A DNA stretch of 64,000 nt from Nitrospira japonica (GCA_020725385.1 DYFC01000034.1:1-64000), one strand, 5' to 3'; counted from the first letter of the stretch, positions 9,050-53,825 are shown. Program-made: numbers and translations. Notes: generated by a model not told the origin, from the letters alone.

Positions 9050-9142
9050 GGAGAGGTGGCCGAGCCGGTCGAAGGCAGCCGCCTGCTAAGCGGTTGTGGG
9101 GGTAAAACCTCACCCAGGGTTCGAATCCCTGCCTCTCCGCCA
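9050..9142 (+). tRNA. tRNA-Ser(GCT)
   Basis: Acceptor GGAGAGG/CCTCTCC+GCCA, anticodon loop CT-GCT-AA, long variable arm, TTCGAAT T-loop. Confidence 0.95.
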
Positions 9143-9898: not shown

Positions 9899-9975
9899 GC
9901 GCCCATAGCTCAGCTGGATAGAGCGACGGACTACGAATCCGCAGGTCGGGGGTTCAAATCCTCCTGGGCGCGCCA
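9899..9975 (+). tRNA. tRNA-Arg(ACG)
   Basis: Acceptor GCGCCCA/TGGGCGC+GCCA, anticodon loop CT-ACG-AA, GGTTCAAATCC. Confidence 0.95.
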
Positions 9976-40803: not shown

Positions 40804-42231
40804 TTAAGTTATTAATTTTCTCGTGTCCCAGAATTTCCATTTTAGGTAGTCATTAATGCCTTTAGCTGCTTTTCTGCCTGCACCCATCGCAAGAATTACT
40901 GTTGCAGCGCCTGTAACAATATCACCTCCTGCAAATATGCCGGGTTTTGAAGTCATTCCTGTTTCATGGTCAGCGATTATATAATTTTTCTTGTTAAGAG
41001 CAAGATCTGGTATTGTGCTGGTTAGCAATGTATTCGACCTTGTTCCTATAGCAGGTATTGCAACATCTATATCAAGCTTAAACTCGCTTCCTTTTATTGG
41101 TACAGGTTTCCTCCTTCCAGAAGCATCAGGCTCGCCAAGTTCCATTTTTATACATTCAACAGCACAAACATTTCCTTTGCCATCATCAATGAATTTTAAT
41201 GGAGCAGTGAGAAACATGAATTCAATTCCTTCTTCTTTTGCGTGATGTATTTCTGCTTTCCTTGCAGGCATTTCTTCTTCAGAGCGACGGTAAATGAGAT
41301 ATACTTTTTCCGAGCCAAGCCTTAAAGCAACTCTTGCAGCATCCATTGCAACATTGCCGCCTCCAAATACAGCTACATTTTTTCCTTTTTTAATAGGTGT
41401 ATCATATTCGGGAAAAAGATAAGCTTTCATAAGATTTGCTCTTGTAAGAAATTCATTCGCAGAATAAATTCCATTTAAGTTTTCACCCGGAATTCCAAGA
41501 AAAACAGGCAGTCCCGCGCCTGCCCCAATATAACATGCATCATAACCCTGTTTATTCATGAGGTCATCTATAGTAAAAAGTTTCCCTATTACCGAATTAA
41601 GTCTTATCTCAACTCCGAGCTTTTTTATATATTCAACTTCTTTTTCAACTATAACCTTTGGCAATCTGAATTCCGGTATCCCGTAAATAAGGACTCCCCC
41701 GGGTTTGTGGAGTGCTTCAAACAATGTAACCCGATGTCCTTCTTTTATAAGATCTGCTGCGCATGAAAGTCCTCCGGGTCCGGAGCCGATTACAGCAACT
41801 TTTCTTCCTGTTGATTTAGGTTTTTCCGGTATTTGTATTTCACCGCTTTCACGTTCAAAATCAGCGACAAATCTTTCAAGATTACCAATTGCAACTGGCT
41901 CTCCTTTTTTTCCAAGAATACATCTTGATTCGCACTGTATTTCTTGAGGACAAACTCTTCCACATACAGCAGGCATTGCATTTTCTTCTTTTATTTTCCA
42001 TGCTGCTTCTATAAATTTTCCTTGTTTAATTAATTTAATAAATGCAGGTATATCAATCGATACAGGGCATCCTTCCCTGCATGTAGGTTTTGCACAATTT
42101 AAACAACGGGAAGCTTCTTCAACAGCTTCTTTAGGAGAATAACCAAAAGGCACTTCATCAAAATTTCTTGCTCTTATTATAGGGTCCTGTTCTCTCATCC
42201 TGATTCTGCTTTTTTGTTTCTTTTCTTCCAT
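40804..42231 (-). CDS. nfnB: NfnB/SudA, large subunit of NADH-dependent reduced ferredoxin:NADP+ oxidoreductase (GltD-like)
   Basis: CLNC...C..GCP and CGRVCPQE.QCE Fe-S motifs, GSGPGG, GGGNVAMD; paired with nfnA; no gltB nearby. Confidence 0.88.
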   Translation of the reverse strand: MEEKKQKSRIRMREQDPIIRARNFDEVPFGYSPKEAVEEASRCLNCAKPTCREGCPVSIDIPAFIKLIKQGKFIEAAWKIKEENAMPAVCGRVCPQEIQCESRCILGKKGEPVAIGNLERFVADFERESGEIQIPEKPKSTGRKVAVIGSGPGGLSCAADLIKEGHRVTLFEALHKPGGVLIYGIPEFRLPKVIVEKEVEYIKKLGVEIRLNSVIGKLFTIDDLMNKQGYDACYIGAGAGLPVFLGIPGENLNGIYSANEFLTRANLMKAYLFPEYDTPIKKGKNVAVFGGGNVAMDAARVALRLGSEKVYLIYRRSEEEMPARKAEIHHAKEEGIEFMFLTAPLKFIDDGKGNVCAVECIKMELGEPDASGRRKPVPIKGSEFKLDIDVAIPAIGTRSNTLLTSTIPDLALNKKNYIIADHETGMTSKPGIFAGGDIVTGAATVILAMGAGRKAAKGINDYLKWKFWDTRKLIT

Positions 42232-43061
42232 TATTTCACCCCTGCTTTATAGTGTTCCATGGCAATTTTTTCTTCATCAATATACATTCTTTGCCTTGAC
42301 ATTAAGAGATTGAAATCAACCTTATGTCCATCGAATTCAGGTCCATCAACACATGCAAATTTTGTTTCACCGCCGACTTCAACCCTGCATGCTCCACACA
42401 TTCCTGTTGCATCAACCATTATGGAATTCAGACTGACAATAGTTTTAACATTATGTTTTTGAGTAGTAATGCATACAAATTTCATCATTATCGCAGGTCC
42501 AATTGCATAAACGAGTTTTACACTTTTATCTTCATGCAAAATTTCATCAACAGGCACGGTAACAACAGCTTTTCTTCCGTAAGAACCATCATCGGTTACA
42601 ACTATCAATTCATCCGATACACTTCTCATTTTGTCTTCCCAGAAAATGAGTTCTTTCATTCTTGCTCCAATTATAGATATTACAGTATTGCCTGCTTCTT
42701 TTAATGCACGTGCAATAGGATAAACAGGTGCGATTCCAACACCGCCTCCAACACAAATAACTTTGCCAAAATTTTCAATATGCGAAGGAATTCCGAGAGG
42801 ACCTATAACATCTGTAATATAGTCACCTTCGTTTAATGTAGAAAGCTCATGGGTAGTTTTACCGATTTTTTGGAAAACAGTTGTAATAGTTCCTTTTTCT
42901 CTGTCAAAGTCTGCTATTGTAAGGGGAATTCTTTCTCCTTTTTCATGAATGCGAAGCACAAAAAAATTGCCTGCCTTTGCTTTTTGTGCTATTTCTTTTG
43001 CATCAATTACAAATAGAACTACAGCATCAGACAAGATCTGTTTTTCGAGGATTTTGAACAT
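42231..43061 (-). CDS. nfnA: NfnA/SudB, small FAD/[2Fe-2S] subunit
   Basis: ERIPLTIAD, GGGVG, MVDATGMCGACRV...CVDGPEF. Confidence 0.9.
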   Translation of the reverse strand: MFKILEKQILSDAVVLFVIDAKEIAQKAKAGNFFVLRIHEKGERIPLTIADFDREKGTITTVFQKIGKTTHELSTLNEGDYITDVIGPLGIPSHIENFGKVICVGGGVGIAPVYPIARALKEAGNTVISIIGARMKELIFWEDKMRSVSDELIVVTDDGSYGRKAVVTVPVDEILHEDKSVKLVYAIGPAIMMKFVCITTQKHNVKTIVSLNSIMVDATGMCGACRVEVGGETKFACVDGPEFDGHKVDFNLLMSRQRMYIDEEKIAMEHYKAGVK

Positions 43062-43106
43062 TAAAAACTCCTTTCTAATACGGCGGTGCCGGGATGAACT
43101 TAAGAT

Positions 43107-43154
43107 CTAAAACTCAAAATTCAAGATTCAAAACTCAAAACTCAAAATTCAAGA
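43107..43154. repeat. Heptamer tandem repeat (TCAAAAC/TCAAAAT/TCAAGAT)
   Basis: About six 7-nt units upstream of nfnA. Confidence 0.75.
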
Positions 43155-43321
43155 ATGGGTTTCTATAGCTAATGCTTTCATAGTATAAACTCTCAATAAA
43201 TTTTTTGGAATAATTTTTTATACAAATTAAAAATAACCTCTATTTATGATGATTTTATAATTGAAAATAATAAGCTTATCAAGCTATTAAAAAAATTATT
43301 TTACATTAATCAATTTTTTAC

Positions 43322-43351
43322 TTGACAAGACCGAGCACTTTCAAGTATAAC
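43322..43351 (+). promoter_or_regulatory. Sigma70-type promoter of the nuo operon
   Basis: TTGACA-18-TATAAC, 10 nt before nuoA ATG; no Shine-Dalgarno. Confidence 0.55.
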
Positions 43352-43361
43352 ATACTCGCTT

Positions 43362-43733
43362 ATGCCTGGAACGTATTTGCCAACAGAATATTTACCGGTT
43401 TTGATTTTTATACTCGTTGCAGAGGCGTTTGGTTTTGGCGCACTGTTAATAGGAGTAGTATTCAGACCTAAAAAGCCTTACCTTGAAAAATTACTGCCTT
43501 ATGAATCAGGTATTGATCCCAAAGGAGAACCTCGCACAAGATTTGCAATTCGTTTTTATATAATAGCAATGCTTTTTGTGGTTTTTGATGTTGAAGCAAT
43601 TTTTATTTATCCATGGGCAATTGTATTTGATAAGATCGGCATATTTGCATTTATTGAAATGGTTATCTTTATTCTGATACTTTTAGTCGGATACATCTAT
43701 GCCTGGAAAAAAGAAGCTTTTGTCTGGGATTAA
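43362..43733 (+). CDS. nuoA: NADH-quinone oxidoreductase subunit A
   Basis: K..PYESG, FY..AMLFVVFDVE..F.YPW. Confidence 0.96.
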   Translation: MPGTYLPTEYLPVLIFILVAEAFGFGALLIGVVFRPKKPYLEKLLPYESGIDPKGEPRTRFAIRFYIIAMLFVVFDVEAIFIYPWAIVFDKIGIFAFIEMVIFILILLVGYIYAWKKEAFVWD

Positions 43734-43758
43734 AATACCTAACAGGGGGTTATTGTAG

Positions 43759-44277
43759 ATGCTGGATACATCGAGTTTAGGCCTGATTCAAGTGCAGCAG
43801 GATGTTAAGATACTGCCTCCAAATGCTATTATTACGACTTTTGACAAAATTATTAACTGGGGCAGGCTTTCATCTATATGGCCTATGACATTCGGACTTG
43901 CTTGATGTGCTATTGAGATGATGGCCGTGGGCGCATCACATTATGATTTTGACAGGTTCGGTGTTATTTTTAGAGCTTCACCCCGACAGGCAGATTGCAT
44001 TATAATCGCAGGCACAGTTACTAAGAAAATGGCTCCAATTGTAAGAAGAGTTTATGATCAAATGCCTGAGCCGAGATATGTTATCTCTGTTGGAAGTTGT
44101 GCATGCACCGGAGGGATTTTCAAAACATACAGCACAGTACAGGGTTGCGATACTTTCCTGCCGGTTGATGTTTTTATCCCTGGTTGCCCTCCAAGACCCG
44201 AGACATTTCTTGAAGGTGTAATGTTGCTTCAGGAAAAAATAAGAAAAGAACAGGCGAGGTGGAGTCCATGGCGGTAA
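43759..44277 (+). CDS. nuoB: NADH-quinone oxidoreductase subunit B, 172 aa with in-frame TGA at codon 49 (probable selenocysteine)
   Basis: [16 protein letters not shown]-[TGA 43903-43905]-[25 protein letters not shown]; the ORF track shows only the part after the TGA. Confidence 0.9.
43919..43938 (+). promoter_or_regulatory. Candidate SECIS hairpin of nuoB
   Basis: TGATG-GCC-[GTG]-GGC-G-CATCA; loop G at +22 after UGA. Confidence 0.6.
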
Positions 44278-44849
44278 CCGAAGTTGTAGCAGGTTTGTAT
44301 CCTGCCGGAATAGAGCAGGAAAAAATAGCTGAAATGATAAAAGAAAAATTTCCCGAGCAGGTAATTGATGTTACCAATTTCAGGGATCAGGTTGCTGTTA
44401 TTATAAAGAAAAATCAGAGTTTTTCAATCCTTAAATATCTCCATGATGAACCAACTCTTAGTTTTGACCATCTTAGAGATCTAACTGCTGTTGACTGGTC
44501 TAATAAAAAAGAAGTAAGATTTGAAGTCGTTTATAATCTTTTATCAACAAAATACCGTCATATACTAAGAATAAAAGTACAGGTTCCGGAAAATGACGTG
44601 AAAATTGCTTCGGTTGTGCCGATATGGGCAGGAGCAAATTGGCATGAACGTGAATGTTTTGATATGTTCGGAATTCAATTTACAGGTCATCCCGATTTAA
44701 GAAGAATTTTAATGCCAGAGGACTGGGAAGGTTATCCATTGAGAAAAGATTATCCTTTAAAAGGATATGAAGGAGATAAAGACTGGCCTGGATTTATTCA
44801 AGTTATTAAAAGATCTCAAGAACTGAAGGAGTTTGAGTGGCATGATTAA
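44259..44849 (+). CDS. nuoC: NADH-quinone oxidoreductase subunit C
   Basis: [31 protein letters not shown]. Confidence 0.95.
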
Positions 44850-46311
44850 GATGCAGGAGCCTGAAAAGATTTTTGAGACGAGAGAACTGAATGTTAATAT
44901 GGGGCCACAGCATCCGGCTACCCATGGGGTATTAAGAGTTGTATTGGACCTTGATGGTGAAACTATTGTCAGACTTACTCCATACGTTGGTTATCTGCAT
45001 CGTGGTATAGAAAAGCTCGGTGAAAGTCTGAGTTATTTTCAGGCATTGCCTTTAACAGACAGGATGGACTATGTCTCAGCAATGTCCAATAATATAGGTT
45101 ATTGCGTAGCTGTTGAAAAACTTTATGGAATAGAACCTCCGCCAAGAGCAAAATTCATAAGAACAATTGTTGGAGAGTTGTCAAGAATTTCAAATCATCT
45201 CTTATGGCTTGCAACACACGCTCTTGACATCGGCGCAATGACAGTCTTTCTTTATTGTTTCAGGGAAAGAGAATGGATACTTGAATTATTTGAGATGATA
45301 TGCGGTGCAAGACTTACCGTTACATATCCAAGAGTTGGTGGAGTAAGAAACGATATATCCAAAGAATTTATAGATCATCTCGTAAAATTCCTTGCAGAAT
45401 TTCCTTCAAGAATACTTGAATATGAAACATTAATTGATCAGAATAGAATCTGGCTTCAAAGGACTGTAGGTATTGGTGTTATCTCTGCTGAAGAAGCCAT
45501 TAACTGGGGAATGACAGGACCTACATTAAGAGGTTCTGGAATTCCGTATGATATTAGAAAATTTATGCCTTATGATGCCTATGATCAGGTTGAATTTGAA
45601 ATTCCTATAGGTACCGCAGGCGATACATATGATAGATACCGTTGCAGAATGCTTGAAATGAGGCAGTCTGTAAAAATAATCATACAATGTCTCGAGAAAC
45701 TTCCTGCCGGTCCTGTAATGGCTGATGCTCCAAAGTTTGTACTTCCTCCAAAAGACAAAATGTTAATAATCACACATCCTGTAAATGAAATTGCATATTT
45801 CATAGATGAAAAAGCATGTAAAGGATGTGGAATGTGTTTAAGAGCATGTCCTGCAAAAGCAATAACAGGTGAGAAAAAGAAACCGCATAAAATTGATCAG
45901 GCTTTATGTCTGCAATGTGCCACCTGTTTTGTTACATGTAAGTTCAAGGCTTTAAAAATAGTTCCGGGAGGAAAAGGACAGACAGAGGAGAAACTTGTAG
46001 AGCTTGCAGCGCAGCCTGTTTCGGATGAACTAAAACAGGCTCAAGAAGCACTCGTTGCTCATTTTGATTTCATAAAGAAAGGACCCAAGGTTCCTGAAGG
46101 TGAAGTATATGTAGCAACAGAAGTCCCGAAAGGAGAGCTTGGATTCTATTTTGTCAGTGATGGTACGCATAAACCATATAGAATGCGTGTTAGGTCGCCA
46201 TCCTTTATTCATGCAGGATGTCTTGAAAGACTCTGTAAAGGGCATTTGGTTGCGGATGTTATAGCTAATATTGGAACGATTGATATCGTTCTTGGAGAGT
46301 GTGACAGGTAG
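44842..46311 (+). CDS. nuoD: NADH-quinone oxidoreductase subunit D with inserted 2x[4Fe-4S] ferredoxin domain
   Basis: [31 protein letters not shown]; insert [12 protein letters not shown]...[11 protein letters not shown]. Confidence 0.95.
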
Positions 46312-46314
46312 AAT

Positions 46315-47373
46315 ATGAATATGGCAAATGTAATAAGTCCTACAACTGTTGATGCTTTAATTAAATTTGGCATTGATGTAGCTATTATTCTTCTTAAAAT
46401 AGTAATAGTTCTTGCGGTTGGCTTACTTCATGTAGCATATGCAACATATTTCGAACGTAAAGTAATAGGTCATATGCAGGTAAGACTTGGACCAATGAGG
46501 GTTGGACCTCACGGTCTTCTTCAGCCTTTTGCTGATGGTATAAAACTTTTCTTTAAAGAAGACATAATCCCTGCTCAGGCTGATAAAGTAGTCTTTTATA
46601 TTGCTCCTATTATTTTTATGGCTGCTGCAATGGTTAATTTGTCCGTAATTCCATTTGATGCAAATTTTGTAATTGCTGATATTAATGTTGGATTGCTTTT
46701 CATCTTTGCGATGGCTGGAGTTGGTGTTTATGGAATATTTATATCAGGATGGGCATCAAATTCAAAATATGCATTCATGGGAGGACTTAGATCATCTGCA
46801 CAGGTTATAAGTTATGAAATTGCGATGGGTCTCAGCCTTGTTGGTGTTATGATGATGGCGGGTTCTTTAAATCTCTCGGATATAATCAGGGCACAAGGTG
46901 AATCAATATTTGGCATGTACGCTATCCCCCAGTTTATAGGATTTATAGTATTTGTAATTGCTGCAGTTGCAGAAACAAACAGAACACCGTTTGATTTGCC
47001 CGAAGCCGAAAGCGAATTAGTAGCAGGTTATTTTACAGAATATAGTAGTTTCAGATTTGCTCTATTCTTTCTTGGCGAATATATAGCAATGATTCTTATG
47101 GCGTCATTATGCACAATATGTTTCCTCGGTGGATGGACATTGCCATGGTATGTTTTGAAAATTTTCCCGTTCCTTAGTTATGTGCCGGGAGTTGTATGGT
47201 TTGTGTTGAAAGTTTATGCATTTTTCTTCTTCTATTACTGGATAAGAGCAACAGTACCAAGATACAGATACGACCAGTTTATGGCTATAGGCTGGAAGAT
47301 TTTAATTCCGGTTGCGATAGGAAATATATTATTAACAGGTCTTGTGAAAATTATTTTGAAAGAGGTATTGTAG
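46315..47373 (+). CDS. nuoH: NADH-quinone oxidoreductase subunit H
   Basis: ERKV...MQ.R.GP, PFADGIKL..KE, NRTPFDLPEAESELVAG. Confidence 0.96.
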   Translation: MNMANVISPTTVDALIKFGIDVAIILLKIVIVLAVGLLHVAYATYFERKVIGHMQVRLGPMRVGPHGLLQPFADGIKLFFKEDIIPAQADKVVFYIAPIIFMAAAMVNLSVIPFDANFVIADINVGLLFIFAMAGVGVYGIFISGWASNSKYAFMGGLRSSAQVISYEIAMGLSLVGVMMMAGSLNLSDIIRAQGESIFGMYAIPQFIGFIVFVIAAVAETNRTPFDLPEAESELVAGYFTEYSSFRFALFFLGEYIAMILMASLCTICFLGGWTLPWYVLKIFPFLSYVPGVVWFVLKVYAFFFFYYWIRATVPRYRYDQFMAIGWKILIPVAIGNILLTGLVKIILKEVL

Positions 47374-47374
47374 C

Positions 47375-47899
47375 GTGACATTCAAACATTTCATTAAAAC
47401 AATTACCTTTATAGAAATATTGAAAGGTATGGCTTTAACATTAAGAAGGATGTTTTCTAAGGCAGTTACAATACAATATCCCGATGAAAGAAGAAAGATT
47501 GCGCCTGGTTTTAGAGGGCAACATGCTCTTTCAAAACGTGGCGGGAAAGCAAAATGTGTTGGTTGCGGATTATGCGCTACAATATGCCCTTCGCAATGTA
47601 TAAGCATAACGAGAGAAAAAGGTCAGGTTACAAAATATCAAATAGAGCTTCTAAGATGTATATATTGTGGATTTTGTGTTGAAGCTTGCCCGTATGGAGC
47701 TATCTCTCTAACTGAGAATTATGAATATTCTTCTTACAACAAACAGGATTTAATGATGACAAAGGAAAAATTATTATCAAACTGGGATAAATATATGCCC
47801 GGTACAAAAGGCGAAGAATATTACAAAAAATTCTGGAGGCCTATGTCAGAGGATTTCGGTACACCTCCCGGACAGGCAATGTATGGAGGTAAAAGATAA
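47375..47899 (+). CDS. nuoI: NADH-quinone oxidoreductase subunit I
   Basis: TIQYP, FRG.H, CVGCGLCATICP, CIYCGFCVEACP. Confidence 0.95.
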   Translation: MTFKHFIKTITFIEILKGMALTLRRMFSKAVTIQYPDERRKIAPGFRGQHALSKRGGKAKCVGCGLCATICPSQCISITREKGQVTKYQIELLRCIYCGFCVEACPYGAISLTENYEYSSYNKQDLMMTKEKLLSNWDKYMPGTKGEEYYKKFWRPMSEDFGTPPGQAMYGGKR

Positions 47900-48411
47900 T
47901 GGTATCCATAGGCTTTTTTATATATTTTGCTTTTGCAATTGTAGTTCTTTCATTGCTTGTAGTAACAAGAAGGAATCCTGTTCACAGTGTTTTATGGATG
48001 CTTCTTTTGTTTTTCCATATAGCAGGAGTATATTTGTTCCTTAACGCTGAATTTATGGCTGCAATACAGGTCATTGTATATGCAGGAGGTATCCTTGTTT
48101 TATTCTTATTTGTTGTTCTTTTAATGAACTTACGAGAAGAGTTATCAATAGGTAAATACACCACATTTGGCCCGACAGGTTTTACTTTCGCTTTAGGACT
48201 TTTTGTAGCTGTTTCTATGGCACTGAGTTCTTTTATAGCTGCGCCTCCCGGCAAATATTCAATAGATTTAATCAAGCAGGAGACACATGTAAAAGCACTC
48301 GGTAAATTGTTATATACAGAGTTTATTTATCCTTTTGAAATTGCTTCTTTGATTCTTTTAGTTGCAATGATTGGAGCAATAGTCCTTGCGAAAAGGAGGC
48401 TTAAGAGTTAA
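47899..48411 (+). CDS. nuoJ: NADH-quinone oxidoreductase subunit J
   Basis: NPVHS, QVIVYAGGI.VLFLFV, FE..S..LL.AMIGA. Confidence 0.95.
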   Translation: MVSIGFFIYFAFAIVVLSLLVVTRRNPVHSVLWMLLLFFHIAGVYLFLNAEFMAAIQVIVYAGGILVLFLFVVLLMNLREELSIGKYTTFGPTGFTFALGLFVAVSMALSSFIAAPPGKYSIDLIKQETHVKALGKLLYTEFIYPFEIASLILLVAMIGAIVLAKRRLKS

Positions 48412-48412
48412 G

Positions 48413-48718
48413 ATGGCGGTTCCATTAAGCTGGTACATGTTATTGAGTCTTGCTGTATTTTCAATCGGTGTGTTTGGTTTTCTTTCAAGAAGAAACATTA
48501 TTATTATGTTAATGTCTATAGAATTAATGTTAAACGGAGTAAATATTAATTTAATCGCTCTCAGTCATTATATTCAGGATTTAAGGGGCCAGATACTTGC
48601 GTTTTTTGTGATAGCGGTTGCAGCAGCCGAGGCGGCGATTGGACTTGCGATTGTGATTGCGATGTTCAGGAACAGGGCAACTGCGCATGTTGATGAAATC
48701 AAAGAGATGCAGGGTTGA
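48413..48718 (+). CDS. nuoK: NADH-quinone oxidoreductase subunit K
   Basis: RRN.I..LMSIELMLN, AAAEAAIGLA. Confidence 0.95.
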   Translation: MAVPLSWYMLLSLAVFSIGVFGFLSRRNIIIMLMSIELMLNGVNINLIALSHYIQDLRGQILAFFVIAVAAAEAAIGLAIVIAMFRNRATAHVDEIKEMQG

Positions 48719-48747
48719 TTAACAAATGAGTATAGAGGAATAAGAAT

Positions 48748-50832
48748 ATGGCAAATATGGAATTACAATGGTATCATGTTTTAATACCTTTTCTTCCGCT
48801 AACCGGTTTTATAATTAATATTCTACTTGGCAAAGAAGTAACCAGATATAAAGCTCACTGGTTTGCTGTTTCTTCTGTTTTTGGTTCATGGCTATGTTCG
48901 CTCGCTACATTACAGGATGTTCTTGGAGGCAAGATAATCGATGCCGATCTTTATACATGGATACTTTCAGGCACATTTAAGGTAGGGGTGGGATTTTTAA
49001 TTGATCCTTTAACTGCAGTTATGCTCATTGTTGTTACAACCTGTGCAACTTTGATTCATATTTATGCAATAGGTTATATGCATGGTGACACAGGTTATTA
49101 CAGATTTTTCTCATATCTGAATCTTTTCACATTCTGTATGCTTATGCTTGTAATGGGCAATAACTTCCTCCAGCTTTATTTCGGATGGGAAGGTGTAGGA
49201 CTTTGCTCTTATTTCTTGATTGGATATTATTTCAATAAAAAATCTGCTGCAGATGCTGGAAAGAAAGCCTTCATAGTCAATAGATTCGGCGACTTTGGTT
49301 TTGGAATCGGTGTTTTTATGGTCTTTTTAACATTTGGAACTTTACACTATGCTGATGTTTTTGCGAATGTTAGCAGTATTGCCGGTAAAACAGTCAATTT
49401 TCTTGGTTTAAATGTTGACCTTCCAACATTGATTGCACTATTACTTTTTTGCGGTGCGGTTGGAAAATCAGCCCAGATTCCATTACATGTCTGGCTTCCA
49501 GATGCAATGGAAGGTCCCACACCTGTCAGCGCATTAATCCATGCTGCCACAATGGTTACAGCGGGTGTATTTCTCGTTGCAAGATGCAATCCTATTTTCA
49601 ACCTTTCTGAAATTGCAATGAATACAGTCGCAATTATCGGGGCGTTGACAATGTTCTTTGCAGCAACAATCGCTATAACGCAAAATGATATAAAAAGAAT
49701 TATAGCTTTTTCTACATGTAGTCACTTAGGTTATATGTTTCTTGCCTGTGGAGTTGGAGCTTATGCAGCAGGAATATTCCATCTTTACACCCATGCATTT
49801 TTCAAAGCACTTCTATTTCTTGCAGCAGGTAGTGTAATTCATGCAGTTCATACAAATAATATTCAGTTTATGGGTGGATTGAAAAAATATATGCCTATTA
49901 CATACGCGGTTTTCGTTATTGCTGGGTTAAGTGCCGGCGGATTTCCCGGTCTTTCCGGATTCTTCAGCAAGGATGAGATTATATGGTCTGCATATGCTTC
50001 CCATTCAAGCGTAGGTAAATTTGTATGGATACTCGCACTTGCCGGAGCATTCTTTACACCTTTCTATACATTTAGATTAATATTCAGGACTTTCTTCGGA
50101 GAATATCGTGGTGGACTCGAGGCAGAAGAAGCAGCGACTCATGCACATAGCAGTTCACATGGTTCGGGGCATAGTTCACATGGTGCCGGTCATGATTCTC
50201 ACGGTTCAGGACACGACCCGCACGGACATGATTCATCTCATGGTTCCGGACATGATTCACACGGAGGACATGGACATGGTCCCCATGAATCACCTTATAT
50301 TATGACAGTGCCCTTGATGTTTCTTGCTGTTGGAGCAATAGCTGCCGGCTGGGTTGGCATTCCGCCTTTACTCGGGGGAGGAAATCATTTTGCTCATTTC
50401 TTACAGCCTGTTGTAGGCCACCCGGAATTTCATGGCACTCATGCTGAAGAATGGGGTGTAATGATATTATCAACCACAATTGCACTAATTGGCCTGGGAC
50501 TTGCAGCATTTATGTATTTAAGAAAAACCGATTTACCCGAGAGAATTTCAAAACAATTCTCATTGTTATATAAAATTTTATATAACAAATATTATGTGGA
50601 TGAATTTTATAATCTTACTATTGTGCAGCCGACTCTTAAACTTGCAAATAAAGTGCTTGTAGGATTTACAGATGCCAAGATAATTGAAGGTATAGTTAAT
50701 GGTGTGCCTAACTTAATAGGAATATTCAGCCAGAAACTTAGAAGGCTTCAAACAGGAATAGCGCATCATTATGCAATATTTATGGCAGCAGGTGCAGTTT
50801 TTATAGTTGCACTGGTAATTTTATTGAGTTAA
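48748..50832 (+). CDS. nuoL: NADH-quinone oxidoreductase subunit L with His-rich loop
   Basis: GKSAQ.PLHVWLPDAMEGPTPVSALIHAATMV, HAFFKALLFL. Confidence 0.96.
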   Translation: MANMELQWYHVLIPFLPLTGFIINILLGKEVTRYKAHWFAVSSVFGSWLCSLATLQDVLGGKIIDADLYTWILSGTFKVGVGFLIDPLTAVMLIVVTTCATLIHIYAIGYMHGDTGYYRFFSYLNLFTFCMLMLVMGNNFLQLYFGWEGVGLCSYFLIGYYFNKKSAADAGKKAFIVNRFGDFGFGIGVFMVFLTFGTLHYADVFANVSSIAGKTVNFLGLNVDLPTLIALLLFCGAVGKSAQIPLHVWLPDAMEGPTPVSALIHAATMVTAGVFLVARCNPIFNLSEIAMNTVAIIGALTMFFAATIAITQNDIKRIIAFSTCSHLGYMFLACGVGAYAAGIFHLYTHAFFKALLFLAAGSVIHAVHTNNIQFMGGLKKYMPITYAVFVIAGLSAGGFPGLSGFFSKDEIIWSAYASHSSVGKFVWILALAGAFFTPFYTFRLIFRTFFGEYRGGLEAEEAATHAHSSSHGSGHSSHGAGHDSHGSGHDPHGHDSSHGSGHDSHGGHGHGPHESPYIMTVPLMFLAVGAIAAGWVGIPPLLGGGNHFAHFLQPVVGHPEFHGTHAEEWGVMILSTTIALIGLGLAAFMYLRKTDLPERISKQFSLLYKILYNKYYVDEFYNLTIVQPTLKLANKVLVGFTDAKIIEGIVNGVPNLIGIFSQKLRRLQTGIAHHYAIFMAAGAVFIVALVILLS

Positions 50833-50859
50833 AAAGGATAAAACTCTTAGAGGAGAACA

Positions 50860-52401
50860 ATGGAACAGGTAATAATGAATAATCTGAATTACCCCATACT
50901 TAGCACCGTTATATTTCTACCAGTTTTGGGCGCGCTTCTAATTCTCATTAACAGAAGATCATGGGAGACCCTGACAAAATGGATAGCATTGGGAACGAGC
51001 ATTTTAACTTTTATAGCTTCAATTCCTTTATTTACTCATTTTGACAAGACCACCCATAAGATGCAATTTGTAGAGAGATTTTCATGGATTCCCAACTGGA
51101 ATATTTATTATTTTCTCGGAGTTGATGGCATAAGCGTTCTATTTGTTCTTCTTTCGACACTATGCGCTATTCTTTGTGTATTAATATCATGGACAGCAGT
51201 TACTAATAAAATTAAAGAGTTTTATATAGCTATTTTATTAACAACATCTTTTATGATCGGTGTCTTCTGCTCCCTGGATTTTTTCCTTTTTTATCTTTTC
51301 TGGGAAGCGATGCTTATACCTATGTTCCTGATCATCGGTGTCTGGGGCGGACCAAATCGTATATATGCTGCAATTAAGTTCTTCCTTTATACATTAGTAG
51401 GAAGTGTCCTGATGCTTGTTGGAATAATCGTTCTTTATCTTTATTCAGGTAAAACATTTGATATTCTTACAATGATGACAAAGAATTATCCTTATACAAT
51501 GCAAATATGGCTTTTCTGGGCATTTTTTGCAGCTTTTGCTGTTAAGGTGCCAATGTGGCCAGTGCATACATGGTTGCCCGATGCACATACCGAAGCTCCA
51601 ACAGCAGGTTCGGTTATTCTTGCTGCTGTCCTTATTAAAATGGGTGCTTATGGTTTCCTGAGATTTTCATTGCCCCTGCTTCCCGAAGCATCAAAAGCAA
51701 TGACACCTGTTATGTTAACGTTATCAGTTATTGCAATTATTTATGGAGCTATCATATGTTTAGGCCAGACAGACCTGAAAAGACTTATTGCATACAGTTC
51801 GGTAAGTCACATGGGATTTGTAACACTCGGTATTTTTGCACTAAATACACAGGGAGTTGAAGGCGGAATACTACAAATGCTCAATCATGGTGTAGTAACA
51901 GGAGCTCTCTTTTTATCTGTAGGTATTGTTTATGAAAGAACACATACAAGATTAATTGCTGATTATGGTGGTCTTGCTACCGAGATGCCAATATATTCAT
52001 CATTTTTTATGGTGTTTACCTTAGCAGCAATTGGGCTTCCTGCAACAAATGGTTTTATAGGTGAATTCCTGATCCTTTTGGGTGGATTCGCTGCAAATAA
52101 ATGGGCTGGAGTCCTTGCTTGCACTGGAATAATCATAGGTGCAGGTTATATGCTCTGGCTATATCAAAGAGTATTTTTTATGGAAGTAAATCCCAAGCTT
52201 CATGGACTGGTTGATATGAATGTAAGGGAAACTATAGCATTATTGCCCATGTTAATACTCGTATTCTGGATAGGTGTTTATCCTAATTCATTCCTTAGCT
52301 TTATGCATACTTCTGTGCAACATCTTTTAGAGAGAGTTAATAGTGGCGGGATTGCCCAGGAAGCACAGATAGCTAAAAATATTATGGAGGTAATCAGATG
52401 A
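50860..52401 (+). CDS. nuoM: NADH-quinone oxidoreductase subunit M
   Basis: KVPMWPVHTWLPDAHTEAPT, IAYSSVSHMG. Confidence 0.96.
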   Translation: MEQVIMNNLNYPILSTVIFLPVLGALLILINRRSWETLTKWIALGTSILTFIASIPLFTHFDKTTHKMQFVERFSWIPNWNIYYFLGVDGISVLFVLLSTLCAILCVLISWTAVTNKIKEFYIAILLTTSFMIGVFCSLDFFLFYLFWEAMLIPMFLIIGVWGGPNRIYAAIKFFLYTLVGSVLMLVGIIVLYLYSGKTFDILTMMTKNYPYTMQIWLFWAFFAAFAVKVPMWPVHTWLPDAHTEAPTAGSVILAAVLIKMGAYGFLRFSLPLLPEASKAMTPVMLTLSVIAIIYGAIICLGQTDLKRLIAYSSVSHMGFVTLGIFALNTQGVEGGILQMLNHGVVTGALFLSVGIVYERTHTRLIADYGGLATEMPIYSSFFMVFTLAAIGLPATNGFIGEFLILLGGFAANKWAGVLACTGIIIGAGYMLWLYQRVFFMEVNPKLHGLVDMNVRETIALLPMLILVFWIGVYPNSFLSFMHTSVQHLLERVNSGGIAQEAQIAKNIMEVIR

Positions 52402-53825
52402 ATTTCCCCCTTCCTGATCTTAATCCTGTAATGCCTGAAATACTGATGACTGCATTTGCATTAATTGTGCTTTTACTTGATTTGATTGTGAAAAAGAAAG
52501 AAGCTGTAGCTGTAATTAGCATTGCAGGCACAGCAATAGTATCACTAAGTCTTCTAAATACATCAGGCTCTACATTCGGGGGAATGTATATAGCTGACGG
52601 ATATAGCACATTCTTTAAAATCATATTCTTTATAAATGTCATATTAACGATATTGATTTCAATTAAATATATTGCTGTAGAAAGAGTTAATTATGGTGAA
52701 TATTATAGTTTAATACTTTTTTCGACAGTTGGTATGATGATAATGGCCTCAGCTTCTGACCTGATAACGCTTTACTTAGGTCTTGAATTAATGGCATTAA
52801 GCACTTATGTATTAGCCGGATTTATAAGACATAATCTTAAATCGACTGAATCTGCACTTAAATATTTTCTTCTGGGAGCTTTTTCATCAGGATTCTTGCT
52901 CTATGGTATTTCTATTGTATATGGACTTACAGGTACAACGGATATAAAGGCAATAGCAACATTCATAACAGAAAGAGGATTAAGCGGAAATTTATCGCTT
53001 CTTCTTGCGATTGGAATGCTTACTGTTGCGTTTGGATTTAAGATTGCTGCGGCTCCATTTCATATGTGGGCTCCCGATGTATATGAAGGAGCTCCAACTT
53101 CAATAACAGCATTCATGTCAGTTGGCCCAAAAGCAGCTGGTTTTGCTGTTATTGGAAGAGTTTTTATGATAGCTTTTGCAGCTGTAAAAGCAGACTGGGC
53201 AACTATCTTGATCCCGATATCAATTCTTACAATGGCAGTTGGTAACATTGTAGCATTATCACAGACGAACATAAAGAGAATGCTCGCATATTCTTCTATA
53301 GCCCATGCTGGATATGCATTGCTTGGTATAATTACAGCCAACTCAGAGGGTATATCAAGCATGATGAATTATCTCTTTATCTATGCTTTCATGAATATCG
53401 GAGCATTTGCAGTTATCATAATGCTTAGAAGCGAAGGCATAAAAGGTGAAGATTTAAGCGACTATGAAGGGCTTTCAAAAACACATCCTATGGCAGCGGC
53501 TTTAATGCTGATTTTTATGTTTTCATTGACCGGAATCCCACCAACAGCAGGTTTTATTGGTAAATTATATATTTTCATGGCTGCAATTAATGCAGGATAT
53601 ACATGGCTTGTTATTATAGCTGTCATATTTAGCGCTATTTCAGCATACTTTTATTTACGAGTTGTAATGTATATGTATATGAGGGATCCAAAAACTGAAC
53701 TACCTTTAACTACATCCTTTACAAATGGATTAGCCCTTGCAGTTACAACAGCAGCAGTATTGATCATAGGTGTTTTCCCGACAATGCTTGTGGAATTTGC
53801 CCGTGCTGCATTGAAGAGTTTTTAG
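52398..53825 (+). CDS. nuoN: NADH-quinone oxidoreductase subunit N
   Basis: FKIAAAPFHMWAPDVYEGAPT, KRMLAYSSIAHAGY. Confidence 0.96.
   Translation: MNFPLPDLNPVMPEILMTAFALIVLLLDLIVKKKEAVAVISIAGTAIVSLSLLNTSGSTFGGMYIADGYSTFFKIIFFINVILTILISIKYIAVERVNYGEYYSLILFSTVGMMIMASASDLITLYLGLELMALSTYVLAGFIRHNLKSTESALKYFLLGAFSSGFLLYGISIVYGLTGTTDIKAIATFITERGLSGNLSLLLAIGMLTVAFGFKIAAAPFHMWAPDVYEGAPTSITAFMSVGPKAAGFAVIGRVFMIAFAAVKADWATILIPISILTMAVGNIVALSQTNIKRMLAYSSIAHAGYALLGIITANSEGISSMMNYLFIYAFMNIGAFAVIIMLRSEGIKGEDLSDYEGLSKTHPMAAALMLIFMFSLTGIPPTAGFIGKLYIFMAAINAGYTWLVIIAVIFSAISAYFYLRVVMYMYMRDPKTELPLTTSFTNGLALAVTTAAVLIIGVFPTMLVEFARAALKSF

Follow-up and report, generated by a model that had tools for sequence, protein, structure and literature searches.

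Where does a complex I encoded without nuoE, nuoF, and nuoG obtain its electrons, and how is its cluster N2 held when nuoB, the gene for the subunit that binds it, contains an in-frame UGA? Both questions are raised by a locus on contig DYFC01000034.1 of assembly GCA_020725385.1, listed under Nitrospira japonica. The stretch analyzed, referred to as the window, is the first 64 kb (positions 1 to 64,000) of this 152-kb contig; the assembly comprises 2.46 Mb and is 96.6% complete. Two divergent gene sets lie within it, nfnBA on the minus strand (40804-43061) and nuoABCDHIJKLMN on the plus strand (43362-53825), separated by a gap of 300 bp. The host is an uncultured, heat-loving Thermodesulfovibrionales bacterium, and the operon is its only complex I. 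Its named relatives are metagenome-assembled genomes (MAGs) carrying the labels Thermodesulfovibrionales, Thermodesulfovibrionia, or Nitrospirota.

The explanation that fits best is an 11-subunit complex I that is linked to ferredoxin and reduces menaquinone (or runs reversibly), with two novelties that are independent of each other: a ferredoxin-like domain inserted in NuoD and a selenocysteine (Sec) ligand of N2. In this scheme, the inserted domain would be tethered beside the NuoD/NuoI surface, the face that binds ferredoxin in cyanobacterial NDH-1, and would act as a built-in electron entry wire, or as an exit in reverse. Low-potential electrons from reduced ferredoxin or a ferredoxin-reducing enzyme would enter the insert and pass via N6a and N6b to the Sec-ligated N2 and on to menaquinone, coupled to proton pumping. 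Sec would tune or protect N2 and would be swapped easily with Cys, presumably following selenium supply. NfnAB would occupy a conserved "transhydrogenase slot," its NADH/NADPH/ferredoxin balancing link running through pools and co-inheritance, for which physical docking would not be necessary. We favor the reading as a whole (an 11-subunit headless quinone-reducing proton pump with an entry wire in NuoD, a Sec-containing NuoB, and a pool-level link to Nfn) with modest confidence.

The ferredoxin-like domain of NuoD

The genes and the domain that bear on the electron path are the following.

44833..46311, plus strand: nuoD with insert; 492 aa; TIGR01962 554.7 bits, above cut-off; PF00346 matched in two stretches
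45760..46023, plus strand: NuoD insert, a 2x[4Fe-4S] ferredoxin-like domain with linkers; aa ~310-397; Pfam Fer4, Fer4_6, and Fer4_21 at aa 322-385
47375..47899, plus strand: nuoI (clusters N6a and N6b); 174 aa; NF004538 141.7 bits, above cut-off; two CxxCxxCxxxCP motifs

A dicluster insert in NuoD had been reported in a preliminary description of this DNA and was confirmed by the Fer4 profiles and two ferredoxin motifs. The PF00346 match is split around the Fer4 matches, and two CxxCxxCxxxC(P) motifs lie inside the insert, which measures 85-90 aa and consists of a 55-residue core flanked by linkers of about 14 and 22 residues. Alignment to solved structures places the insertion point between the equivalents of T. 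thermophilus Nqo4 residues 315 and 317. Across 43 aligned homologues, some only 77% identical overall, none of the eight Cys residues of the insert varies. Elsewhere in NuoD, alignment shows that the motifs GPQHPATHG and DRMDYVS are shared with solved 49-kDa subunits; we take the His of the former, in the beta1-beta2 loop, and the Tyr of the latter to be quinone-site residues. The two NuoI motifs read CVGCGLCATICP and CIYCGFCVEACP and presumably provide cluster ligands.

The position of the insert was compared with the ferredoxin pocket of NDH-1 from T. elongatus. NuoD 419-492 aligns gap-free with NdhH 321-394, pairing NuoD Lys419 (in KKGPK) with NdhH Lys321, and one predicted helix (NuoD 398-416) lies between the insert and Lys419. 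In ferredoxin-bound NDH-1, passages of PMC7021789 describe contacts to ferredoxin from NdhH Lys315 and Lys321 and from three NdhI lysines; for a second ferredoxin-bound structure, a passage of PMC6992706 gives a distance of 9.6 Å from the ferredoxin cluster to N6a. The insert is thus consistent with a tethered domain able to reach the N6a pocket, because Lys419, the counterpart of a ferredoxin contact, follows 24 residues after its end and linkers of the lengths given above flank its core. A complex prediction combining the NuoD insert (97 aa), NuoI, and four 4Fe-4S clusters returned a score of 0.00 and gave no answer.

A likely source of the domain emerged from a search of the host genome that was unbiased for length. 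The best paralogue of the insert is aa 535-589 of a 592-aa NuoF-like protein (55% identity, E 6e-21) with Complex1_51K, SLBB, NADH_4Fe-4S, and Fer4 domains. An insert-like match also occurs in 23 loci (L123-L144, L155) that hold a NuoF-like gene of about 590 aa; in the 19 checked by coordinates, the match is the C-terminus of the NuoF-like protein (13 of 19 Nitrospirota, 62-71% identity). Passages of PMC12018979 state that Bfu enzymes reduce ferredoxin at the "Fd-like domain" (clusters B3/B4) of BfuB/HydB. Judged by sequence, the nearest relatives of the insert are the C-terminal Fd-like domains of BfuB/HydB-type NuoF homologues. Our literature search, whose coverage did not extend to supplementary files, returned no report of a dicluster insert in NuoD.

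The insert is restricted to a single uncultured family of the Thermodesulfovibrionales, here f1. Within a phylum sample of 401 genomes, full-length insert matches were obtained only in the host genome (G000), 11 of the 12 other f1 genomes, and G280; the other genomes listed match the NuoD flanks alone, and their open reading frames (ORFs) are mostly near 400 aa. The carriers amount to 40 species-level genomes, all of them uncultured MAGs and one a closed chromosome of 3.59 Mb, and a protein collection holds the insert in 76 clusters at 90% identity. G280 (L034, L084) is labeled as a member of the neighboring family f2. Its insert-bearing NuoD is 86% identical to that of the window, and the only NfnB homologue found in it, 55% identical, is not of the f1 type and lies on a different contig; the nuo operon may have been transferred horizontally, or the genome may have been misbinned.

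The head subunits require a distinction between operon and genome. The preliminary description had nuoEFG absent, which holds for the operon, because nuoD (ending at 46311) runs directly into nuoH (starting at 46315) with no nuoE, nuoF, or nuoG within; nuoH directly follows nuoD in 36/36 insert-bearing loci that include nuoH. It does not hold for the genome, which encodes four NuoE/NuoF-like pairs and four NuoG-like genes elsewhere. The NuoE/NuoF-like clusters adjoin FdhA plus formate-tetrahydrofolate ligase, the CO dehydrogenase catalytic subunit, or NuoG-like/Fdh-like genes, and none is found with nuo. All NuoG-like proteins score below the NuoG equivalog cut-off (336-363 bits versus 470). 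Besides the operon copy, the genome has one NuoD-type gene, NuoCD-like and on another contig; a single NuoD-type gene is present in 11 of the 12 other insert-bearing genomes. The organism is of the anaerobe type, with Wood-Ljungdahl genes present, and encodes Rnf (RnfC 570 bits on TIGR01945, followed by ORFs of D/G/E/A size). The electron source of the 11-subunit complex I of anaerobes is an old open question, and an insert beside the ferredoxin pocket makes the hypothesis of ferredoxin input directly testable.

The slot upstream of nuoA and competing accounts

The region facing nuoA comprises these features.

40804..42231, minus strand: nfnB (NfnL/GltD-like large subunit; 2x[4Fe-4S] plus FAD/NADPH domains); 475 aa; TIGR01316 580 bits versus a cut-off of 472; Pfam Fer4_20 and Pyr_redox_2
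42231..43061, minus strand: nfnA (NfnS/PyrK-like small subunit); 276 aa; NF004862 419 bits versus a cut-off of 220; Pfam DHODB_Fe-S_bind and NAD_binding_1
43062..43361, no strand assigned: divergent intergenic region; 300 bp; holds a tandem repeat and the nuo promoter

Structure searches and the NCBIfam cut-offs passed identify NfnA and NfnB as full-length homologues of characterized NfnS and NfnL. The best solved relative of NfnB is 4ylf_B (E 2.6e-188, full length), followed by 5jca_L, which its depositors named NfnI; that of NfnA is 5jca_S (NfnI; E 5e-108). The divergent region shared by nfnAB and nuoABCDHIJKLMN was found as previously described.

Enough upstream sequence for a census of this slot was available in 36 of the 40 insert-bearing loci. 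NfnAB occupies it in 25, PntAB in 6, and a Bfu-type set in 3; none of these was present in 2. The PntAB loci (L101, L106, L108, L110, L114, and L119; AlaDh_PNT and PNTB domains) form one clade of the NuoACD tree. The Bfu-type set (L083, L096, and L098), made up of NuoE-like, NuoF-like, and NuoG-like genes, is scattered over three clades, and the same tree shows that adjacency was lost or displaced at least five times. In two of the three loci, the NuoF-like gene is fused to a GltD-like domain. At L096:3-5426 and L083:117-5525 (also L030), the set is divergent from nuoA and encodes a 178-aa NuoE-like protein, a NuoG-like protein, and a 1061-aa fusion of a NuoF-like part (Complex1_51K and NADH_4Fe-4S) with a GltD-like part (Fer4_20 and Pyr_redox_2), the L083 protein being 86% identical. 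A Pfam scan of the L096 proteins detected no C-terminal Fer4 dicluster like that of NuoD in the fusion, and a search of the host genome found no orthologue of it (at most 56% identity, partial). In the host's congener G390, nuo and nfnAB are separated by the Bfu-type set, which is encoded on the nfn strand, and nfnB is 7.8 kb from nuoB. NfnB of the f1 type (at least 74% identity) is nearly restricted to the family; outside it, 77%-identical copies in G284 and G423 are unlinked to nuo. NfnB homologues outside the family (at most 64% identity) are on other contigs or far off, except in G324 and G394, where they lie about 4 kb from nuoB.

We take NfnAB and PntAB, two of the three slot systems, to be transhydrogenases; that the Bfu-type set is another would be a guess from its domains. 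Inherited synteny alone is hard to accept, because three non-homologous systems that interconvert or oxidize NAD(P)H share the slot, and the data support an Nfn-nuo neighborhood that exceeds chance. A conserved unit for redox balancing is suggested by the repeated placement of three non-homologous systems of transhydrogenase type beside nuo. Because PntAB lacks Fe-S clusters, finding it where Nfn otherwise sits favors coupling via NAD(P)H/ferredoxin pools over an obligatory Nfn-to-NuoD electron hand-over. The slot thus points to an NAD(P)H/ferredoxin balancing link rather than to obligatory docking of Nfn. The earlier proposal that Nfn or its ferredoxin pool feeds the NuoD insert survives in part: the slot is conserved in 34/36 loci and the insert fits a ferredoxin-type input, but PntAB in 6/36 argues against an obligatory hand-over from Nfn.

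A head of the Bfu type, or Nfn itself, might conceivably dock on the insert, and each possibility gives rise to a distinct account. The stronger of the two casts a Bfu-type NuoE/F/G-like module as the true head, with the insert replacing the Fd-like domain of that module and the enzyme drawing on NAD(P)H or on formate/CO instead of requiring free ferredoxin. The four NuoE/NuoF-like pairs of the host could supply such a head, NuoE/F/G-like genes fill the divergent slot of three loci, and the L096 NuoF-GltD fusion was found without the Fer4 dicluster, the very BfuB domain to which the insert is homologous. However, the pairs of the host cluster with FdhA and formate-tetrahydrofolate ligase, CO dehydrogenase, and NuoG-like genes rather than with nuo, every NuoG-like protein falls under the NuoG cut-off, the fusion has no orthologue here, and an adjacent set occurs in only 3/36 loci. 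We consider this head unlikely.

Less likely again is a dedicated input in which NfnAB docks on the ferredoxin-like domain, which would link quinone reduction, or the reverse reaction, to NADPH (plus NAD+). Ferredoxin binds at the [4Fe-4S] end of NfnB in the solved enzyme, and the NuoD domain would be a plausible partner for that end; nfnAB is divergently adjacent in 25/36 assessable insert loci, f1-type NfnB is nearly restricted to the insert family, and G390 keeps nfnB beyond its Bfu-type genes on the same strand. Against this, 11/36 insert loci have no adjacent nfnAB, six of them carrying PntAB; the insert occurs without f1-type NfnB in G350 (none at E <= 1e-120) and in G280 (only the 55% homologue on another contig); G324 and G394 have nfnAB near nuo and no insert; and adjacency was lost or displaced repeatedly, as counted above.

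The ferredoxin-linked reading itself has points that weigh against it. The f1 member G324 and all sampled genomes of the order's other families except G280 are without the insert, which would not be needed for ferredoxin oxidation as such if the insert-less enzymes also use ferredoxin. The four NuoE/NuoF-like modules elsewhere in the genome could in principle dock. Slot synteny within one family is partly inherited, and the PntAB replacement represents one clade. An AlphaFold2 model of NuoD, built with 43 close homologues, reached a mean predicted local distance difference test score (pLDDT) of 56.7, too poor to place the insert. The poor model, together with relatives that function without the insert, leaves room for a structural, assembly, regulatory, or redox-sensing appendage off the electron path, but we judge this the most doubtful of the three alternatives for the insert: 8/8 cluster-ligand Cys are invariant in 43 sequences even at 77% identity, the source domain family is an electron-transfer domain, and the insertion site adjoins the patch of NDH-1 that contacts ferredoxin.

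The UGA codon of nuoB

The features of nuoB that concern cluster N2 are listed below.

43759..44277, plus strand: nuoB, predicted selenoprotein and holder of cluster N2; 172 aa including Met and Sec; read through, NF005012 251 bits and TIGR01957 239 bits
43903..43905, plus strand: predicted UGA Sec codon at the first Cys of the tandem-Cys N2 motif FGLA[U]CAIEMM; in-frame TGA, FGLA*CAIEMM
43915..43942, plus strand: SECIS-like (selenocysteine insertion sequence-like) hairpin from a fold, core GAUGAUGGCCGUGGGCGCAUCAC; loop ~22 nt past the UGA

The UGA replaces what we take to be the first of the tandem cysteines that ligate N2. That it lies at an N2 ligand, as the preliminary description had it, was confirmed; the nuoB ATG is at 43759, a correction from 43762. 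The ligand set of NuoB reads U-C...GSCAC...PGCPP with Sec at the first position, on the assumption that the tandem pair and the two further Cys are the N2 ligands.

On comparative grounds, the UGA is judged a genuine Sec codon, because its site is shared by 39 distinct genes and filled by Cys in orthologues, and because an approximately 5-fold suppression of synonymous change downstream is confined to UGA genes. The nuoB frame is conserved on both sides of the TGA, with relatives at 78-99% identity. The motif was found in 60 of 61 loci; the TGA is at the same codon in 32/32 TGA loci, and 28 orthologues have TGT or TGC. Overall, distinct nuoB gene segments number 39 with TGA versus 49 with Cys. 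Synonymous differences were counted between genes encoding the same peptide, comparing codons +4 to +11 with the rest of the gene. The rates for UGA genes were 0.099 versus 0.507 (n = 20), 0.098 versus 0.509 (n = 12; the window-type group), and 0.075 versus 0.353 (n = 6). The ratio is 0.19-0.21 in all three UGA groups versus 0.74-0.96 in four Cys groups. The hairpin begins 12-16 nt past the UGA and exists in three sequence versions among UGA genes. In the host genome, TGA serves as an ordinary stop in 206/991 long ORFs, nuoK and nuoM among them; tRNA-Sec, selA, and two selB copies are present, and the NuoB of the operon is the only one. The FdhA gene at G000:C27:32846-35563 (L162), next to NuoE/NuoF-like genes and formate-tetrahydrofolate ligase, has one TGA at residue 363 (HCARY*HSSS) and is predicted to encode a second selenoprotein of the genome.

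Some results tell against translation of this codon as Sec. selD was not found in the 96.6%-complete assembly, the best TIGR00476 match scoring 69 bits versus a cut-off of 125; it probably falls in an assembly gap. In the sampled genomes of the family, 13/15 have a selD with its own TGA and the other 2/15 have partial matches. A single-sequence fold of the 73 nt past the UGA (-12.8 kcal/mol) is not significant relative to shuffles (z = 0.63), and the minimum free energy of nt +10 to +51 does not distinguish Sec genes from Cys genes (-8.08 versus -8.21 kcal/mol). Rfam matched no SECIS family at the nuoB site and, in the whole window, just two tRNAs. Gene callers appear to truncate Sec-nuoB genes: the best full-length NuoB in a collection of 5.8 billion proteins is 86% identical, yet G286 holds a 99% identical gene. 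Such truncation and the missing selD are what a stop (pseudogene, split gene, or assembly error) or another amino acid would predict, but this alternative is extremely improbable given that site, frame, and downstream RNA constraint are identical in 39 distinct genes, that this is the sole NuoB, that TGA is a normal stop elsewhere, and that Sec machinery and another selenoprotein are present.

Sec-NuoB extends beyond the insert family. The order is represented by 131 genomes, 124 with a NuoB match; among the best matches listed, 34 have one TGA (5 in the family of the window and 29 in other families). Counting genomes with a NuoB match, Sec-NuoB occurs in 5/13 insert-bearing versus 29/111 insert-less members of the order. 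A degenerate DNA motif pattern retrieved 33/401 phylum genomes, of which 32 belong to the order, 1 to another order of the same class, and 0 to other classes; the reversed-pattern control gave 0 matches in the phylum. In the small phylum around G448, the pattern matched 0/88 genomes. The codon is readable in 38/40 insert-bearing species genomes (TGA 11, Cys 27), and a NuoA+C+D tree of 32 insert-bearing genomes shows at least seven changes between Sec and Cys, several sister pairs consisting of one Sec and one Cys member. In the complete genome G013, also of the order, NuoB has Sec and nuoD is directly followed by NuoE- and NuoF-like genes.

A scan of metagenome contigs yielded at least 80 loci, with a NuoB-like gene in 65 and the TGA motif in 63 of those 65. 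Of the latter, 20 are Thermodesulfovibrionales-like, 29 belong to a "CALEM" group (FGLA*CALEM...), 11 are of mitochondrial type, and 3 are outside these groups. Four CALEM loci of sufficient length have NuoF- and NuoG-like genes between nuoD and nuoH, and the group has its own conserved 8-bp hairpin past the UGA, GGUUGCCA-GUA-UGGCGACC. The nearest named relatives of the L178 NuoD, the only CALEM NuoD searched, are labeled Thermodesulfobacteriota or Syntrophaceae. CALEM-type loci are L170, L176, L178, L190, L195, L205, L218, L228, and about 20 more.

The mitochondrial-type NuoB/NDUFS7 loci (L168, L175, L177, L188, L191, L208, L213, L222, L231, L235, and L238) share the motif FGLA*CAVEMMHAAAARY. 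These may be nuclear eukaryotic NDUFS7 genes, encoding a selenoprotein NDUFS7, because the lone TGA is at the first tandem N2 Cys, the other Cys codons are standard, interruptions resembling introns are present in two loci (L191 and L168), and no nuoA or nuoC neighbors were found in the four longer contigs that were checked. For these eukaryote-like contigs, the Euplotid code (UGA = Cys) was set aside, as TGA is limited to one Cys position and standard codons specify the rest.

The preliminary description had treated insert, UGA, missing head, and nfnAB as one co-evolving module. For Sec this was not upheld, and the lack of correlation that the description had named as refuting was observed. 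Sec varies independently of both the insert and the loss of the head, because both insert states carry it, at least seven state changes have occurred, and Sec is also found in operons with nuoE/F/G-like genes. The Sec ligand of N2 is widespread and labile; the NuoD domain is restricted to one family. Our literature search found no report of Sec in NuoB, NDUFS7, PSST, or Nqo6, although supplementary selenoproteome tables, outside its coverage, may list NuoB. In the matched passages of a 2026 review of prokaryotic selenoproteins (PMC13188914), the only entry retrieved for complex I is PF02508 "subunit E," with NuoB/PF01058 not among them; the passages of the GOS selenoproteome table likewise have no NuoB/PF01058 entry.

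If confirmed, Sec at an N2 ligand would offer a 77Se handle on N2 for spectroscopy, natural Sec/Cys pairs would allow comparison of midpoint potential, kinetics, and oxygen tolerance, and NuoB (apparently NDUFS7 too) would join the selenoprotein families. N2, with its unusual tandem-cysteine ligation, is the coupling point of electron transfer, quinone chemistry, and proton pumping in complex I. A broader claim joins both novelties: that Sec-ligated N2 recurs across bacteria and probably some eukaryotes, and that a domain captured from a bifurcating enzyme lets NfnAB, or Bfu-type modules that do not have such a domain of their own, plug directly into the pump. We advance it tentatively and do not expect all of it to hold. 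Were it true, the result would be a new kind of NAD(P)H/ferredoxin:menaquinone respiratory assembly, and Sec-ligated N2, having arisen or been exchanged many times, would be a natural selenium probe of the quinone-reducing cluster.

Known systems and further features of the window

The closest functional parallel is NDH-1 of cyanobacteria and chloroplasts, a ferredoxin:plastoquinone oxidoreductase that likewise has eleven Nuo-homologous core subunits and no NuoEFG. Passages of PMC6992706 and PMC7021789 have ferredoxin donating to N6a at a pocket formed by NdhI and the C-terminal part of NdhH. As set out above, NuoD Lys419 matches the ferredoxin-contacting NdhH Lys321. In contrast to NDH-1, the ferredoxin-like domain here is covalent within NuoD, N2 has a predicted Sec ligand, and the host is of the anaerobe type. 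We regard the resemblance as functional and do not count the enzyme as a member of the photosynthetic NDH-1 group.

NuoEFG-less pumps also include the 11-subunit Nuo of sulfate reducers and other anaerobes, archaeal Fpo/Fqo, and Campylobacter Nuo, for which ferredoxin, F420H2, or flavodoxin donors have been proposed or shown. The literature search turned up no dicluster insert in NuoD/FpoD and no Sec ligand of N2 in the sulfate-reducer, Fpo/Fqo, or Campylobacter enzymes. The C-terminal Fd-like domain (B3/B4) of BfuB/HydB has the same two ferredoxin signature motifs as the insert, but is the tail of a flavoprotein, whereas the insert is internal to a quinone-module subunit derived from [NiFe]-hydrogenase. 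Sec is a redox-metal ligand in [NiFeSe] hydrogenase, FdhA/FwdB, HdrA, and VhuD. These families are listed in passages of PMC13188914. NuoB would resemble them in having Sec in place of a redox-metal-binding Cys and in forming Sec/Cys orthologue pairs; the center, unlike theirs, is the terminal [4Fe-4S] cluster N2 of complex I. Both Nfn subunits align over their full length with NfnAB (NfnSL) of Thermotoga maritima and Pyrococcus furiosus (4ylf, 5jca). The proteins are ordinary in comparison with the solved enzymes, and only their conserved position beside nuo stands out.

The remaining features of the nuo operon are as follows.

TTGACA 43322-43327, spacer 18 nt, TATAAC 43346-43351, plus strand: nuo promoter, from a reading of the sequence
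43362..43733, plus strand: nuoA; 123 aa; PF00507 125.7 bits
44259..44849, plus strand: nuoC; 196 aa; PF00329 167.9 bits
46315..47373, plus strand: nuoH; 352 aa; PF00146 424.5 bits
47899-48411, plus strand: nuoJ; called from position, size, and hydrophobic sequence
48386-48718, plus strand: nuoK; called from position, size, and hydrophobic sequence
48748..50832, plus strand: nuoL; 694 aa; NF005141 764.9 bits
50860..52401, plus strand: nuoM; 513 aa; NF004499 671.5 bits
52398..53825, plus strand: nuoN; 475 aa; TIGR01770 483.6 bits

In a hidden Markov model scan, which left out NuoJ and NuoK, NuoA, B, C, D, H, I, L, M, and N all exceed curated family cut-offs. NuoL contains a low-complexity loop rich in His, Gly, and Ser at aa 460-517 (50125-50298); relatives have 5 to 23 histidines there, and the short form reads THHEEHHLHESP. 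The loop possibly binds metal.

Upstream of nuoA, the segment 43322-43361 is strongly conserved. It consists of a T-rich tract, TTGACA, 18 nt, and TATAAC. This promoter ends only 11 nt ahead of the nuoA start codon, no Shine-Dalgarno sequence is evident, and the nuoA transcript may be leaderless or nearly so. An operator search over 37 upstream regions of related loci found conservation confined to the nuo promoter itself. The 10-mers ACTTGACAAG and AGTATAACAT are common to 25 and 29 of these 37 regions, respectively, regardless of the upstream gene. Just upstream of nfnA, an (AAAACTC)n tandem repeat of 6.3 copies (alternatively a 21-bp unit x 2.7) spans 43097-43152.

The genes flanking the nfn-nuo region look unrelated to it (PBP1C-like, LemA, DUF2207, ABC exporter, and acyltransferase). 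Of 24 sequencing runs listed, 18, from 12 studies, cover the window wholly or partly; no recorded RNA run is among them. The two tRNA genes of the window (Rfam RF00005) lie at 9050-9139 and 9899-9972 and are unrelated to the nfn-nuo region.

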